Assembly: GCA_951813565.1 (NCBI GenBank)
Contig: OX638351.1
Coordinates: forward strand, 3,072,001 to 3,136,000
Origin: an uncultured Poribacteria bacterium
Lineage (GTDB): Bacteria; Poribacteria; WGA-4E; WGA-3G
DNA length: 64,000 bases
Direction of reading: 5' to 3'
The notes under the pieces were generated by a model. The model had not been told where the DNA came from. It worked only from the letters and a program-made list of their open reading frames with translations, and did not search any database. A program made the translations under genes and the position numbers. Of the stretch, positions 1 through 6,617 are shown piece by piece (position 1 is the first letter of the stretch; every line of letters begins with the position of its first letter).

Positions 1-476
1 TGCCTTACGTCATGGAAGAACGCAACTTCATTATCACACGAACATTTTCAAAAATCTATGGTCTGGCGGGTTTGCGAATTGGTTATGGCATCGCGCCTCC
101 CTCCATCATTGCAACGATGAATACTGTCCGTCAACCATTTAACTGTAATGCGGTAGCACAAGCAGCAGCACGTGCAGCACTCAAAGATACTGAGTACGTC
201 AAGAAAAGCCAAGAGTTAAACGCAGCTGGTAAGGTTTTCCTCTACACAGCATTTGACAAGTTAGGTCTTCGCTATATCAAAACTGAAGGGAATTTTATCA
301 TGGTTTTTGTCAATCAACCTGGTGCTGATTTAGCGGATGCCATGATGAAAAAAGGGGTTATCGTACGGGCAATGGTCAGTTACGGTTATCCTGACGCAAT
401 TCGGGTTACAATCGGCAAGCAGGAGGAAAATGAACGTTTCCTTGAGGCACTTACAGCACTTGTCCGAGCAAGGTAA
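1..476 (+). CDS. hisC: Histidinol-phosphate aminotransferase, C-terminal part (5' end lies before the window)
   Basis: PLP-lysine motif RTFSKIYGLAGLRIGY, then PFN and C-terminal IRVTIG..EN. Confidence 0.9.
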   Translation, partial: PYVMEERNFIITRTFSKIYGLAGLRIGYGIAPPSIIATMNTVRQPFNCNAVAQAAARAALKDTEYVKKSQELNAAGKVFLYTAFDKLGLRYIKTEGNFIMVFVNQPGADLADAMMKKGVIVRAMVSYGYPDAIRVTIGKQEENERFLEALTALVRAR

Positions 477-639: not shown

Positions 640-2937
640 GTGACATCATTCAACTTTGGACCCATAGCGAGAACTTCAGCAGGTGACACACACGATACTA
701 TTAATCTTGCCTCATTTCCGCTTCATGTCATGCTCAATGCATTGGTTGGCTCAACGAGTGTTGAGGAGTTTATTGCCTGGCTCTGGCACGATCTGTACAA
801 ACCGGCTTTTTATTGGAAAAGGGGAGGTTGGTATCACGTCCCAGGTTTCGGGGTTTTTACTAAGGGTGAGGCTGTATTCGCAAACCTTACAAAAATACCT
901 ATTGGATTAGTGAGTTCTCATCATCCAAAATTAGTGGGACCTTACCATCCACTATGGGACCGGAAGACTAAAAGGCTAGTGGATCCATCTACAAAGCTGC
1001 CTTGTCCTAAGTTCAAGTTGCTTGAATCCGATTTCATTTCAGACCAGAGTGACCAAGTAAACCTTGGTGCCACCGTTAACTACATTCAATTGAGTTTTGC
1101 CGCTGAACCAGCACTGCCCACGCTGTTAACTCGTTCAGTTATTGCCGATGCTTTTATTGAGGTAGTGACAAAAGATGTAGCCGAAGCATTAAAACAGGCA
1201 TTTATTGATGATGGACGCGTGCCAATTGAACGAGTCCAATTCAAATTTGATACTAAGGCAAATATAACTTTTTCTTCACCGCCAACTAACTCTGAAATCT
1301 GGGACAAAATTGGAAAACATTTTGATGTTTACATGGATGGCAACACGTTTGTCATGCGTCATCTCACACCTGTTACCGCATCCAAATATGAATCTTTTGA
1401 TATAACATTTACTGCAGATCTAACAGGAAAATCACTGCTACCTAATGAAATGTTGGATAACAGTGTGTCATTGTCAGAACTGTTGGTGGTATATCAAGAC
1501 AACCGGACAGTAATAATTGCAGTTCCGCAGTCTCAAATTTATTCCGATGACTTATCAAAAAAGATTCAGGAGATTCAGGAAATGACACTTGAAACAAGTC
1601 GTCATCGACTTGAACAAGATTTTAACATATTAACACAAAAAGATGGTGTTGATTATCTTAAAACTGCTTTTGATAACCAGATTGAAATACGTAAAGTTCC
1701 CGGACGCTTAGGTAAACGTCCGTTAAATGATGCCATCCAGCGTCCTGTGGAAATGCTTTCCAATATCAGAAATTCGTCAAATAAGAAAGTCTGCCGTTTG
1801 ACTGGTACTCCGTTTGTTTCAACTCTACCTCCTGCCCCAACAACACTAGACAAGTTGTTTTCAAGCAAGTTTGTTGACACGGAATTTGTTGGTTTTGAAG
1901 AAGATGTTGCCCCATTAACGCATTTATATGTGATCAACTCACCAGAAGCCAAGAAAGGCATTTCCGCTCGAAAGTCACTTCGCGGATCCTTTGCTTTTTT
2001 CGCGCCAGCTTCACACTTTGCTGCAGATGATCAAGAATTGGAAGCAATCGAACAACCACCATTGGATATAGGTGGTCGTTTTCGCAATGAACTCAACCGT
2101 ATTACAGTTACAACTCAGGAATTCACACTTTTTCAACAAATGTCACGGCGTGTAATTGTGAAACTTTGGCAGCAACTCGTCCCAGATGAACGCCTTCCAC
2201 TGCCATATCTTGGTGCTATTGCTTTGACTCACGAATCAAATGATCGTATTCGTAGTCTATTACCACATCTTGACTTTATTTTTTCAGATATTACATTAAA
2301 AGCCTATCCATTTGAGTCAAAGGTGTCACCCGCGATAGAGATTGCCCTTGGATCCACTATAAAACCTGACCGATCTGCACATCAAAAACATACACTGCTT
2401 AAGATGGCACCTCATATCACTACAGTAAATGCCGAATCAACCATACCTATATTGATTGATGACAAGGTGCAAGTAAGTTTGACAAAAGCATTTTTTGAAA
2501 GAGAAAAACTTTTAACAAAGGTCACGAATGAACTCAAACGTTTTAAAAAAGGAGTGAACCAGAAAAACCTATGGCTGAAACTGGTACTTTCTAATAACGA
2601 TCCCGTTACAGCTGTTCTTGATAGTTCTGCAGCAACAATCAATGTAGGACGACTCCCAAAAAATTCAACATTAGAGGATATAGCGTTTAAAGACGCAGAA
2701 AATTTCTGGGACAGACATATTAATATGGGTGATTTTGCCGATAGTTGGAAACAATATGAGGAGTTAAGACATAATGCAGCAAACGCTCTTGAGGAATTTC
2801 CTGCACTCCTGCTACTTTTGCAAGCTCTTCAAAAACAAAAGGAAGTCCCGCAAAAACAGACAAAAGCTGAGAAGAACAAGACAAGTGTACCTCAACAACT
2901 TGATTTATTTTCACCACAAAACACGGATGAAATTTAG
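640..2937 (+). CDS. Putative large subunit of a type IV-C-like effector (HD-domain, Cas10-like), 765 aa
   Basis: N-terminal motif series H..WHDLYK..YH..SSHH..SD; degenerate Zn-ribbon CRLTG..KFVD..VAPLT; first gene of an operon with Cas11/Cas7/Cas5-like genes; AAGGAA RBS before GTG. Confidence 0.6.
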   Translation: MTSFNFGPIARTSAGDTHDTINLASFPLHVMLNALVGSTSVEEFIAWLWHDLYKPAFYWKRGGWYHVPGFGVFTKGEAVFANLTKIPIGLVSSHHPKLVGPYHPLWDRKTKRLVDPSTKLPCPKFKLLESDFISDQSDQVNLGATVNYIQLSFAAEPALPTLLTRSVIADAFIEVVTKDVAEALKQAFIDDGRVPIERVQFKFDTKANITFSSPPTNSEIWDKIGKHFDVYMDGNTFVMRHLTPVTASKYESFDITFTADLTGKSLLPNEMLDNSVSLSELLVVYQDNRTVIIAVPQSQIYSDDLSKKIQEIQEMTLETSRHRLEQDFNILTQKDGVDYLKTAFDNQIEIRKVPGRLGKRPLNDAIQRPVEMLSNIRNSSNKKVCRLTGTPFVSTLPPAPTTLDKLFSSKFVDTEFVGFEEDVAPLTHLYVINSPEAKKGISARKSLRGSFAFFAPASHFAADDQELEAIEQPPLDIGGRFRNELNRITVTTQEFTLFQQMSRRVIVKLWQQLVPDERLPLPYLGAIALTHESNDRIRSLLPHLDFIFSDITLKAYPFESKVSPAIEIALGSTIKPDRSAHQKHTLLKMAPHITTVNAESTIPILIDDKVQVSLTKAFFEREKLLTKVTNELKRFKKGVNQKNLWLKLVLSNNDPVTAVLDSSAATINVGRLPKNSTLEDIAFKDAENFWDRHINMGDFADSWKQYEELRHNAANALEEFPALLLLLQALQKQKEVPQKQTKAEKNKTSVPQQLDLFSPQNTDEI

Positions 2938-2949
2938 GAGAATTCGCCC

Positions 2950-3420
2950 ATGACGCAACAAAACAAGCCAAAGACTTTAGAGGAGACATTAACTGACGCA
3001 CTACAAGCAACTGGGAAACTTGATTTAGATGAATCTGTCAAGTTGGCAGTTCAAACGCTCCTTCTGATGCGAGGTCCGCTTGACCCAAAATTATTTAAGC
3101 GTAAGGATATGTTTAACCCATATCCCGTACTTGTCAAGTATATTCGTGCCTCTAATGCAGATACACTTGGAAGTTTGGTAAATGATGTGCAGTTAGCTAT
3201 TTCCCCCAATTTCATTACATTACGGAGTCTTGGGGAAGTAACTGAAGCAATCTATCAGTCTAAAACGGAACACATTGATGAAGCATTGAGACTTTTGAAA
3301 GAAGAGACAACACCATTGGTAATGCTCATGAAAAAAATCTATCAAGACGCACGGGGAGGAATTGATGAGGCAGATGAAGCCCAACTCCTACTTGAAGGTG
3401 CAAGTGAAGGAGAAGCATAA
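2950..3420 (+). CDS. Cas11-like small subunit, 156 aa
   Basis: Small protein that looks helical, placed between the large subunit and the Cas7-like gene; AGGAG RBS. The call rests on position and size. Confidence 0.55.
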   Translation: MTQQNKPKTLEETLTDALQATGKLDLDESVKLAVQTLLLMRGPLDPKLFKRKDMFNPYPVLVKYIRASNADTLGSLVNDVQLAISPNFITLRSLGEVTEAIYQSKTEHIDEALRLLKEETTPLVMLMKKIYQDARGGIDEADEAQLLLEGASEGEA

Positions 3421-3421
3421 C

Positions 3422-4402
3422 ATGAAACAAACTAATCACACTCTTGTTGATGTAAAGTTAACATTTGCATACCTTGCCGAACAGCCGATTATTCACACAG
3501 AAGAGACTATTGGAAATATTAGTAAACTCAAACAAATGCGCGTCATTTACAAAGGAAAGCCTGTGTCTGTTCCTGCATTGTCTGGTAACAGTTTTCGAGG
3601 TCAACTACGTGACATTCTTGCCGACGCACTCTGTTCGCGCCTTAGTAATCAGGGAAAACAACTACTCAGATTCGATGATAACGATGTCTACACAATCTTG
3701 TATAGCGGTGGTGCACTCTCCGATAAGAGCAAAGCGGGTAATCTGATCTATGATTTTGCTAATCATCTACCTTCAATGCGGTTGATGGGTTCTGCATTTG
3801 GTAACGTGATGCTTCCTTCTAAATTAGCGATGACACATATTGTGCCTTGTGCTGAGGAGACACAGGAAATAATGCAAGGGATGTATGAGTCACTTGATAT
3901 GAGTATTATTCCACCAATGAATGAATGGACAAATGCAAGGAATCTAATCTTTAATGACGGTCCACTCACACGTAAGGATGATAGCAAGGATCTTACGCGA
4001 CAGCGATTCGTTGATCTTGAATCCCAAACGGATGGAACTTCTGCTACGGAAAATCAAGACCCCCAACAGATGATTTACTATGTTGAATGTATTCCTGCAG
4101 GAACTTGGTTATTGCAGCAATTCTACTCTAAATATCCGGTTGATCAGTTAGAACTCGGTTGCTTATTTGATGGGTTGTCAACTTTTCTACAACAACCTAC
4201 AATCGGGGGTAGAAGTGCAGCCGGATATGGACAAGTCCGGACTCAATTTCAAGGATTGGTTGGATCAGAACAAGTGAATTATCCGGGAGATTTTCCGGAA
4301 ACCGTCAAAGATGCGGTTTGTGCCTACCAAAATTATCTAACAGAAAAACGAGATGATATTCTCAAAGTATTAACCGTTCAGACTGAAGAGATAAACGAAT
4401 GA
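3422..4402 (+). CDS. csf2: Type IV Cas7-family backbone RAMP (Csf2-like), 326 aa
   Basis: VPALSGNSFRGQLRD, LYSGGAL, RLMGSAFGN.MLPSKL, QMIYYVE, C-terminal G-loop IGGRSAAGYGQV; ATG at 3422 directly follows the upstream stop. Confidence 0.85.
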   Translation: MKQTNHTLVDVKLTFAYLAEQPIIHTEETIGNISKLKQMRVIYKGKPVSVPALSGNSFRGQLRDILADALCSRLSNQGKQLLRFDDNDVYTILYSGGALSDKSKAGNLIYDFANHLPSMRLMGSAFGNVMLPSKLAMTHIVPCAEETQEIMQGMYESLDMSIIPPMNEWTNARNLIFNDGPLTRKDDSKDLTRQRFVDLESQTDGTSATENQDPQQMIYYVECIPAGTWLLQQFYSKYPVDQLELGCLFDGLSTFLQQPTIGGRSAAGYGQVRTQFQGLVGSEQVNYPGDFPETVKDAVCAYQNYLTEKRDDILKVLTVQTEEINE

Positions 4403-5421
4403 CATTGCGCCGCTCTAATTCAGTGTTACAACCTGACCTGTTAATTAAGCAATTACTCGAAGATGCACAGTACCAATTCGGGGTAAAGACAGGAAAGGAA
4501 ATATATGAACTCCGATTAAATTTAGCAACATCTGCTGTTACTACTGCTGAAAAGTCAAATGCACCTGTCATCGGACTTCCTACGCTTGATGGATTTCTAA
4601 GTTATGTCGCCTTCCGAGCTGCACTTGGTAACGCTTTGAATGCAAACCCCGAACTTTCGAAACAGTTATTGTGGCAATGGAATTTAGCGTTACGTCACCA
4701 GGAGATGTGGATAGACTTTGAATTGCCGTTAAGCAAAATTCCGTTGACTGGATTAAAACCACTTTATGATTGTTCGGTAGGTTTACCCGTTGATGTCAAC
4801 GGTGATGTCCTCATACCTGTTGGGGCATTTTTCACTTCCAATAGTCAGCAATTTAAGGTATATCCTGAAGTTGTAGATTCTATTCCATTACGACGAAGAG
4901 TAAGTGAACCATTTGGTCGTCCGATTCGTCTGAAGAGTACGCTAAATACAGGTGGTGGCTCAACGAAAGCACTTGACAATCGCCTTTATTTTCCACTCAC
5001 TAAAAGTTACGTCTTTTTCTTTCGCGGTGATAAAAGCGGTGTTAAAAAGTTGTTAGATTTCGCACTCAAGGAACAGATTGGACTTGGTAAGAAAACTACA
5101 TTAGGATATGGTCAACTCGCTTCCTTTGAAATTAGACAACGTCCTGACGTAAAAGGCACTTGGGCAAAACCAGTGTCTGGACCGCTATATAGCAATGACA
5201 GGTTAGCGTTGATTAAAGACTTACCCTACGACCGCGTTTTCGCACGAAGAGACATAACAGACATAACGGACACACATAACCAAGAACTTTTCGGTTGTGA
5301 GAAATTTGCATTAGTTGCAACAATTGAGACTTTTGGTGCATATTGTCCACCCTATTGGTTGCCAACACAACGGACTCAGATTGTTCGTTACGGCTCAATT
5401 ATTCAAATCCGAAATACATAA
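4399..5421 (+). CDS. csf3: Type IV Cas5-family RAMP (Csf3-like), 340 aa
   Basis: PTLDGFLSY near the N-terminus, FFFRGD, G-loop GLGKKTTLGYGQL, C-terminal PPYW; ATGA overlap with the csf2-like gene. Confidence 0.75.
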   Translation: MTLRRSNSVLQPDLLIKQLLEDAQYQFGVKTGKEIYELRLNLATSAVTTAEKSNAPVIGLPTLDGFLSYVAFRAALGNALNANPELSKQLLWQWNLALRHQEMWIDFELPLSKIPLTGLKPLYDCSVGLPVDVNGDVLIPVGAFFTSNSQQFKVYPEVVDSIPLRRRVSEPFGRPIRLKSTLNTGGGSTKALDNRLYFPLTKSYVFFFRGDKSGVKKLLDFALKEQIGLGKKTTLGYGQLASFEIRQRPDVKGTWAKPVSGPLYSNDRLALIKDLPYDRVFARRDITDITDTHNQELFGCEKFALVATIETFGAYCPPYWLPTQRTQIVRYGSIIQIRNT

Positions 5422-5504: not shown

Positions 5505-6617
5505 ATGAAAGAACTTATTCAGATTGATAATCGGAAACCGACACGAAAAATACAAGTCGGCGCTGTGTGGATTGGCGGTGGTAGTCCCATCTCTATTCAG
5601 ACGATGACCACCACGTTGACACACGACATCAATGCTACGTTAGCACAAGTTGAACGGTGCGCGGAAGCAGGCGCGCAGATTGTCCGAGTCGCAGTGCCAG
5701 AAGAAAAAGACGCGAAAGCACTTAGTGAATTAGTCCAACGTTCTCCAGTGCCAATTGTGTCTGATATTCATTTTAACTATAGATACGCGCTTGCCGCAGT
5801 GGATGCTGGTGTCGCAAAGGTACGCATCAATCCGGGCAACATAGGGAACGAAGAACGAATTGCACAGGTTTTGTCCGCTGCGAAAGCCGCAAATATCCCG
5901 ATTCGTATCGGTGTTAATGAGGGATCACTTGAAAAAGACCTATTGGAAAAATACCCGTCTCCCACTGCAGAGGCGTTGGTAGAAAGTGCGATGCGACATG
6001 TCAATATCTGTGAAGAACACGATTTTACAGATATTGCTATCTCTGTGAAATCCAGCGATCCGCTTCGGATGATAGAGGCGAATCGGTTGCTTTCAGCGAA
6101 GGTTCGCTACCCGTTGCATCTTGGCGTGACAGAAGCTGGTACACCCCGGCGCGCACATGTTAAATCTACACTTGGCATTGGCACACTGTTATTAGAAGGC
6201 ATTGGGGATACGATTCGCATCTCTATCACAGGTGATCCGGTCGAAGAGGTCCTGACCGCCAAAGAACTCCTGCGTGCCCTTGGTATGGCTGAAGATATAT
6301 TAGATGTTATCTCTTGTCCGTTCTGTGGGCGTGGCGACCCTGCTGCTGATTACGAAAACATAGTTACTGTAGCAGAGGAACTTTTGGAAAAACACGGTAT
6401 CAAAATCCCTGTAGCAGTGATGGGGTGTGAAGTTAATGGACCTGGTGAGACGCGTAACGCTGAGGTGGGAATCCATTTGGGTGGGAAGGAGCTTGCCGTT
6501 CTAAAGATTCGTGGTGAACGGGTCCGCACCTTCCGCGGAAAAGACGAGGTAAACCCAGAGTTTTTAGCAAATGCATTATTAGAAGCAGCGCTACAGTGGC
6601 AAGCATCGGATACATAA
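5505..6617 (+). CDS. ispG: 4-hydroxy-3-methylbut-2-en-1-yl diphosphate synthase
   Basis: ISIQTMT, DIHF, RINPGNIG, HLGVTEAG, SCPFCGR, MGCEVNGPGE. Confidence 0.97.
   Translation: MKELIQIDNRKPTRKIQVGAVWIGGGSPISIQTMTTTLTHDINATLAQVERCAEAGAQIVRVAVPEEKDAKALSELVQRSPVPIVSDIHFNYRYALAAVDAGVAKVRINPGNIGNEERIAQVLSAAKAANIPIRIGVNEGSLEKDLLEKYPSPTAEALVESAMRHVNICEEHDFTDIAISVKSSDPLRMIEANRLLSAKVRYPLHLGVTEAGTPRRAHVKSTLGIGTLLLEGIGDTIRISITGDPVEEVLTAKELLRALGMAEDILDVISCPFCGRGDPAADYENIVTVAEELLEKHGIKIPVAVMGCEVNGPGETRNAEVGIHLGGKELAVLKIRGERVRTFRGKDEVNPEFLANALLEAALQWQASDT

Follow-up and report, generated by a model that had tools for sequence, protein, structure and literature searches.

The stretch of DNA analysed here (the window) comprises 64,000 nucleotides (nt), positions 3,072,001-3,136,000 of the single 5.43-Mb contig OX638351.1 (GCA_951813565.1) of a Candidatus (Ca.) Poribacteria host genome, called G000 below, and carries between hisC and ispG an operon of four genes on the plus strand that encode proteins of 765, 156, 326 and 340 amino acids (aa). 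Judged by sequence, these are the genes for Cas10IVc, Cas11, Cas7 (Csf2) and Cas5 (Csf3) of a type IV-C2 CRISPR-Cas system, a family assignment that leaves hardly any room for doubt. The best overall explanation is a stand-alone IV-C2 interference module of Ca. Poribacteria between hisC and ispG (probability about 0.7), and a working CRISPR RNA (crRNA)-guided, DNA-activated HD nuclease complex appears equally probable. Within the rare type IV-C, the bacterial half, IV-C2, has been studied from sequence while experiments were done on IV-C1, going by the accessible parts of Pittman et al. (2026; PMC13676074), to which all citations of this paper refer.

A preliminary description of this DNA had recognised in the four tightly coupled genes a type IV-C-like effector operon with an HD Cas10-like protein, Cas11, Csf2 and Csf3, placed among housekeeping genes of the chromosome. 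This proved right: PADLOC type IV models match all four, and the predicted coordinates are present, as is the spacing of 12 nt between genes 1 and 2, 1 nt between genes 2 and 3 and an ATGA overlap of genes 3 and 4. Gene 3 contains the predicted motifs SGNSFRGQLRD, SGG and GGRSAAGYG and has Csf2_0_IV as its best PADLOC model (E 1.8e-50; Csm3 models scored far lower), while TIGR03115 (E 1.8e-13) reached 50 bits, under its 130-bit cut-off. The top one of its seven sequence matches in the PDB was 11FS Cas7c of P. abyssi IV-C1 (E 2.6e-14, near full length); others were 7JHY Csf2 at E 3.8e-8 and Csm3 at only E 0.13. Gene 4 matches Csf3_0_IV (E 1.7e-16), CAS-IV-C G5 (E 4.7e-6) and, under the cut-off, TIGR03116 (E 1.1e-6); its LDG and PPYW motifs are as described, but the glycine-rich loop reads GLGKK-x3-GYG, with three intervening residues instead of two. 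The reading of gene 2 as Cas11 is upheld by the Cas11_0_IV model (E 0.0018) and by 60% and 91% identity to the second genes of the Ca. Ribeiella danica and RHO3_bin_69 loci, and its structural model is all-helical but of low confidence (predicted local distance difference test, pLDDT, 51.5). Matches of gene 2 to the antitoxin ParD in NCBIfam and Pfam (E about 0.02) were treated as chance. Gene 1 found no Pfam family and no PF22335 match, and PADLOC IV-C Cas10 models match it weakly over residues 31-67 (E 0.011 and 0.024), a stretch within the HD region; its residues 3-731 align with the R. danica large subunit. The same four genes stand in the same order in all 15 related loci that are long enough, and two more (of 17) end within gene 1. 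Source records label the gene 1 homologues Ca. Poribacteria, the closest loci are Poribacteria metagenome-assembled genomes (MAGs), and pairwise identities of Cas7 point to the bacterial IV-C clade.

The locus is a new representative of an already named variant and no undescribed system. Pittman et al. (PMC13676074) divide type IV-C into archaeal IV-C1 and bacterial IV-C2, and their table holds 17 bacterial loci, including four of Ca. Poribacteria, Oscillochloris trichoides DG6 and Ca. R. danica; the earlier suggestion of a possibly undescribed variant falls with this list. Close homologues of all four proteins exist in the catalogued RHO3_bin_69 locus, but not in an experimentally characterised one, the experiments being on IV-C1 only. 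Three listed IV-C2 loci were recovered in the genome scan, namely RHO3_bin_69 (L040; same contig and same start coordinate, 57351), Ca. R. danica (L038) and O. trichoides DG6 (L036). The family exceeds the published list, with 159 clusters at 90% identity (counted among 7,999 scored candidates, near-full-length proteins only) against the 17 bacterial loci in PMC13676074. In their accessible parts, Pinilla-Redondo et al. (PMC7038947) define IV-C by an HD domain, a zinc finger and the lack of GGDD, and Makarova et al. (2025; PMC12669027) call it uncharacterised. Literature searches, with most subscription papers outside their reach, found no other study of IV-C2 or Cas10IVc, and for Poribacteria combined with CRISPR and type IV they returned general sponge papers only.

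The HD motif series that had been proposed for the 765-aa product of gene 1 is conserved in 81 homologues: H29, H50, D51, K54, H94 and E129 do not vary, H95 and D135 reach at least 90% conservation, and the HD residues are retained in the catalogued IV-C2 members as well. The W-H-D-L-Y-K-P core at H50-D51 agrees with the P. abyssi motif that surrounds D94, as read by hand from the primers for the HD mutant (D94A) in the supplement of PMC13676074. By its position in the motif series, D135 is a candidate counterpart of the IV-C1 switch residue E159, and distant homologues carry E at this position. IV-C1 complexes are reported to take crRNA from distant arrays, to bind double-stranded DNA (dsDNA) in dependence on a protospacer-adjacent motif (PAM), to activate the HD site allosterically, to cleave single-stranded DNA (ssDNA) and RNA collaterally and to give ~25-fold plasmid interference (PMC13676074). 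Carried over to the complex encoded here, this would mean PAM-dependent dsDNA binding, HD activation and collateral cleavage; if such target-activated collateral activity is true, a complex from a marine sponge symbiont might work below the temperatures of hyperthermophile enzymes.

The operon site has no array, cas6 or adaptation gene, and I-B, III-A and III-D-like genes are located elsewhere on the chromosome. No array or repeat remnant was found at the locus, where the best flank matches reached 15-17 of 30-37 bases. G000 contains three arrays, none of them inside the window, and holds two Cas6 genes and compatible arrays. Array 1 (C1:1198128-1201322; 48 repeats of 30 nt) adjoins cas2, cas1, cas4, a III-A set, an I-B-like set and cas6, whose Cas6 is encoded at C1:1217333-1218082, while array 3 (54 repeats of 37 nt) lies next to III-D-like genes that come with a separate Cas6 and Cas1. 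The predicted 5' tags are AUAGAAAC for array 1 and AUUGAAAC for array 3; the array-1 tag follows from placing the leader on the cas2 side, because the degenerate repeats of the array in a relative, G092, are at its far end. Array 2 has 26 repeats beside IscB and was rejected as a guide source, being part of an IscB module with a different end tag. This 518-aa IscB (RRXRR, HNH; C1:2828763-2832391, L006 8764-12392) lies outside the window ~355 nt from the array, with a leader similar to the array-1 leader and a stretch that looks like an inverted repeat between the two, and is a CRISPR-associated IscB with a long array. Regulation of the operon by a spacer was also rejected, as the best match of arrays 1-3 to the locus is 65% and the top matches of the mini-array spacer described next lie elsewhere. 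A two-repeat mini-array (C1:1211201-1211300) sits between cas3 and III-A cas10. One of the tied second-best genome matches of its spacer (27/40) falls within the same intergenic region at a distance of ~200 nt, and may reflect autoregulation of a promoter or, the DNA being T-rich, a chance similarity. Lone copies of the array-1 and array-3 repeats were seen far from the arrays at C1:4216797 and C1:4072992, and in another locus (L044 6247-6894) an open reading frame (ORF) for III-A Csm2 carries an N-terminal cold-shock domain (PF00313 + PF03750).

Guides would be supplied in trans, most likely from array 1, going by the genome context. In four of the ten family loci (L027, L029, L032 and L046) the operon is situated within a cas6...cas1-cas2-array locus, which makes array 1 and its Cas6 the likely guide source. 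The clearest order is that of L046 (G092 C61, 1529-13314): cas6, the four genes, a C-terminal cas4 remnant, cas1, cas2 and 64 repeats of the array-1 family, with Cas6 80% and Cas1 86% identical to the proteins of the array-1 locus. G092 (130 contigs, 96% complete) has one cas1, one cas6 and one RAMP match, which is the IV-C2 Cas7; no Cas10 palm was found, and the Cas3 model gave nothing beyond weak matches to helicases. IV-C2 is thus the only effector found in this genome. In L027, L029 and L032 the operon within the cas6 locus is preceded by short ORFs, an I-B set or a III-A set, the last in L032. I consider it probable that the IV-C2 complex takes guides from array 1. The array-1 pre-crRNA would then be cut by the Cas6 of that locus, the array would be filled by its Cas1, Cas2 and Cas4, and IV-C2 would be one more effector drawing on the spacers that the type I-B and III-A effectors also use. 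Guides from array 3 of the III-D-like locus may be loaded as well, because the L027 array, a member of the array-1 family, ends in ATTGAAAC like array 3; arrays near two Chloroflexota IV-C2 loci (L033, L042) also end in ATTGAAAC. Since T. onnurineus is called unique for its adjacent array in PMC13676074, the cas6/array contexts of the relatives appear to extend that paper, and some of them may already appear in the neighbourhood drawings of its Fig. S1. A reconstitution of IV-C2 needs its cognate repeats, 5' tag and Cas6, for all of which the relatives supply likely candidates, and the G092 locus is a natural self-contained IV-C2 locus for expression.

A number of observations count against a working, array-fed nuclease. 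The experiments in PMC13676074 cover IV-C1 only, by the paper's own statement. Gene 1 found no match at E<=1 in a copy of the PDB although 11FS Cas7c was included, so that IV-C1 and IV-C2 large subunits are far apart and may differ in PAM reading or substrate range. The fold matches of the gene 1 model are weak, though all point one way. The zinc finger of gene 1 is degenerate as judged by alignment: one of four cysteines (C385) is kept and FVD replaces the FTD of distant homologues, in eight cluster representatives of which, and in one Caldilineaceae locus, both CxxC pairs are intact. The same cysteine loss occurs in Ca. R. danica and O. trichoides, and PMC13676074 describes it for a subset of bacterial IV-C members. 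Array-1-type Cas6 is present in nine of ten family carriers, but with Cas6 in 73 of 112 family genomes, and kin not independent, this is little enrichment. G051 shows five imperfect matches to array-1-family repeats in a fragmented assembly. G021 (one contig, 95% complete) keeps an intact operon upstream of ispG (C1 ~1001200-1005900) with a 98% identical Cas7, and targeted queries, without a de novo scan, found no cas1, full cas6 or any of the three known repeats; what remains, at ~2768000-2777400, are III-B-like genes whose cas6 is reduced to a 122-aa stump. Finally, the spacer searches yielded no protospacer or PAM, viral collections not being scanned: the listed matches of the G092 array to the 112 family genomes were array-to-array (191 further matches exist), the spacers of G000 gave self matches of 17-18 nt only, and among 1,431 spacers pooled from the fetched loci one had three 91-92% matches in G000.

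The complex might be RNA-guided without being a CRISPR-fed nuclease, either silencing by binding, like IV-A, or using non-CRISPR small RNAs, and so persist without arrays. The G021 operon, the degenerate zinc finger and the location of six of the ten family loci away from the cas6 locus would suit such a role. It is nevertheless unlikely, as the HD residues are conserved throughout the 81 homologues and four of the ten loci do lie within the cas6/array locus, one of them without another effector found. G021 itself may have lost its CRISPR locus recently, as its cas6 stump suggests, or may be incompletely assembled, and one comparable orphan, T. pacificus, is reported in PMC13676074.

The preliminary description had the operon inserted between hisC and ispG, and comparison within the genus agrees with this. 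Of the 39 ispG matches in the genus, 30 loci were retrieved, and in 26 of these hisC ends inside the 1.5 kb upstream of ispG, at distances of 30-922 nt, which argues for insertion into a conserved pair; of the remaining four, three (G000, G021 and G051) carry cas7/cas5 there and one something else. No transposase or integrase ORF was found at the insertion site, and none of the 20 largest repeat families in the window flanks it; the GC content (0.39-0.42) shows a small dip relative to the genome-wide 0.43. Full-length matches to gene 1 occur in ten of 112 family genomes, with one additional 31-residue fragment, and these ten loci occupy at least four sites (three between hisC and ispG, four in the cas6 locus and three at two others). 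In a concatenated tree of 16 loci, holding IV-C2 loci only and without the partial loci L034, L041 and L043, one copy from the cas6 locus and one from the hisC site fall together with support 0.99, so that the module has moved or recombined between the sites, in one direction or the other. In a related operon, Cas7 is split by a ~870-nt insertion with two opposite-strand ORFs (L030 13095-13961), probably an insertion sequence.

This patchy spread over several sites, together with the split Cas7, could also be expected of a decaying passenger that was functional once in the cas6 locus, was relocated and is now unused. I regard this as improbable given that all four frames are intact and tightly coupled here, that three genomes carry the operon at this site, and that the genome offers compatible arrays and two Cas6 genes. 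Synonymous codon differences moreover exceed non-synonymous ones, at 19:5 (versus L028), 50:27 and 80:54 in three comparisons of Cas7, and 17:6 (versus L028) and 24:16 in two of Cas11. A sponge metatranscriptome assembly contains a 5,335-nt contig from a ~89%-identical relative which, in three pieces, covers window positions 703-5407 and hardly anything more. As a sign of operon expression this is weak, since it comes from one study and another strain and may include DNA. Sequencing runs X6-X8 indicate the presence of related DNA at the locus, nothing more.

The large subunit combines the HD domain, two palm/RRM-like regions, the degenerate zinc finger and a helical C-terminal domain. Its AlphaFold (AF2) model was built with 81 of 120 listed homologues aligned (pLDDT 77, predicted template modelling score 0.83). 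In this model the C-terminal domain consists of helices 616-629, 641-650, 655-666, 678-693, 699-719 and 723-726 (block pLDDT 82-93), and six is the number given for the IV-C2 C-terminal domain in PMC13676074. A structure resembling Cas11 is expected of this domain in IV-C2; its profile comparison with gene 2 gave a probability of 0.1% (E 0.43), and the gene 2 model was too poor to superpose. Foldseek ranked type III Cas10/Cmr2 chains first (best E 8.9e-3, none below 0.001), and the top match of VIA-align was type I-D Cas10d (Z 5.4, root-mean-square deviation 5.7, 271 residues aligned). An IV-C2 complex of type III character, with an HD domain activated by target RNA and not by PAM-flanked DNA, would fit the Foldseek ranks, the view in PMC13676074 that the IV-C2 C-terminal domain is inherited from type III, and the position of the L032 operon after a III-A gene set. 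This is nonetheless quite improbable: Cas7 is Csf2-type and nearest in the PDB to the Cas7c of DNA-targeting IV-C1, with Csm3 far behind; the GGDD cyclase motif is absent from all 24 large-subunit sequences checked, gene 1 included; and no IV-C large subunit is among the listed fold matches, the structure library ending in April 2026, so that type III chains may be the nearest available. Very unlikely, too, is a bacterial IV-C2 that acts as a mobile plug-in effector, able to run a complete CRISPR system alone, and that at the ispG site works with guide RNAs of non-CRISPR origin or serves some purpose other than spacer-guided defence, a reading prompted by the contrast between G092, where IV-C2 is the sole effector found, and G021, with its intact operon and no known arrays found.

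Two further observations concern the large subunit. In one Chloroflexaceae MAG (L039 9986-12676), Cas10IVc2 and Cas11 share one 896-aa frame with the Cas11 start methionine in frame, which in this single record is a real fusion or an assembly error. P0128, P0129, P0130 and P0134 are more distant IV-C-like large subunits of 556-734 aa with an intact zinc finger, and their profile match lies mainly over positions 3-496.

Table 1. Operon and flanking features, in coordinates of the window.
Feature	Position	Strand	Basis
hisC-type aminotransferase, 3' part (upstream flank, host gene)	1..476	+	TIGR01141 best match, Pfam PF00155
two sigma-70-like promoter matches, candidate operon promoter	517-545, 556-584 (163-nt gap before gene 1)	+	consensus scan, 9/12 each
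cas10IVc2 large subunit (gene 1), 765 aa, GTG start	640..2937	+	homology to catalogued IV-C2 large subunits
HD nuclease motif series	724..1044: H29 724-726, H50-D51 787-792, K54, H94-H95 919-924, E129, D135 1042-1044	+	conservation in homologues
degenerate zinc-finger region, residues 385-425	1792..1914	+	aligned against 8 distant representatives
six-helix C-terminal domain, residues 616-726 (IV-C2 extension)	2485..2817	+	AF2 helices
cas11 small subunit (gene 2), 156 aa	2950..3420	+	PADLOC Cas11_0_IV
cas7 (csf2; gene 3), 326 aa, backbone subunit	3422..4402	+	PADLOC Csf2_0_IV
cas5 (csf3; gene 4), 340 aa	4399..5421	+	PADLOC Csf3_0_IV
ispG (gcpE), downstream flank, host gene	5505..6617	+	PF04551 E 4.8e-132; TIGR00612 382 bits and NF001540, both over cut-off

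Coordinates are collected in Table 1. The 157-aa part of the hisC flank inside the window matches TIGR01141 at E 1e-46, below the whole-protein cut-off, and the full gene (369 aa) extends upstream past the window edge (L009). The promoter scan is weak, with 18 sites versus 11.5+/-3.4 in shuffles, and the stretch with the two candidates is nearly identical in locus L031. For cas7 the ATG at 3422 was taken as the start, as in homologues, in place of an upstream TTG used in the mechanical ORF list. Elsewhere in the window (24800-57600), several families of dispersed 24-56-nt repeats occur, partly in short tandem stacks and not CRISPR-spaced.

Among known systems, types IV-A and IV-B have a short Csf1 together with DinG or CysH. 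The operon shares their Csf2- and Csf3-type subunits but differs in its 765-aa HD large subunit, with no short Csf1 (no Csf1 profile match), in the lack of DinG or CysH at the locus, and in its chromosomal position with hisC and ispG as neighbours. With type III Cas10 (Cmr2/Csm1) and I-D Cas10d it has a weak whole-protein fold likeness and an N-terminal HD domain in common, and unlike them it combines the absence of GGDD with a Csf2-type Cas7, while its locus carries neither Cas3 nor a CARF effector. IV-C1 of P. abyssi and T. onnurineus (PDB 11FS, 11HC, 11HD) shares the Cas10-Cas11-Cas7-Cas5 core, the Cas7 homology, the HD core motif and, in the reading proposed here, crRNA drawn from other arrays; it is archaeal and without the extended C-terminal domain that the present locus has, and a GGG PAM and collateral activity have been demonstrated for IV-C1 only (PMC13676074). 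Closest are the catalogued IV-C2 loci, with identities for genes 1-4 of 74/91/74/85% to RHO3_bin_69, 52/60/61/55% to Ca. R. danica (the model locus of Pittman et al.) and 51/61/62/53% to O. trichoides DG6. All three share with the operon its gene order, long HD large subunit, degenerate zinc finger, lack of GGDD, six-helix C-terminal domain, chromosomal location and lack of an adjacent array, and what sets the present locus apart from them is its hisC-ispG insertion site and strain-level divergence, nothing else.

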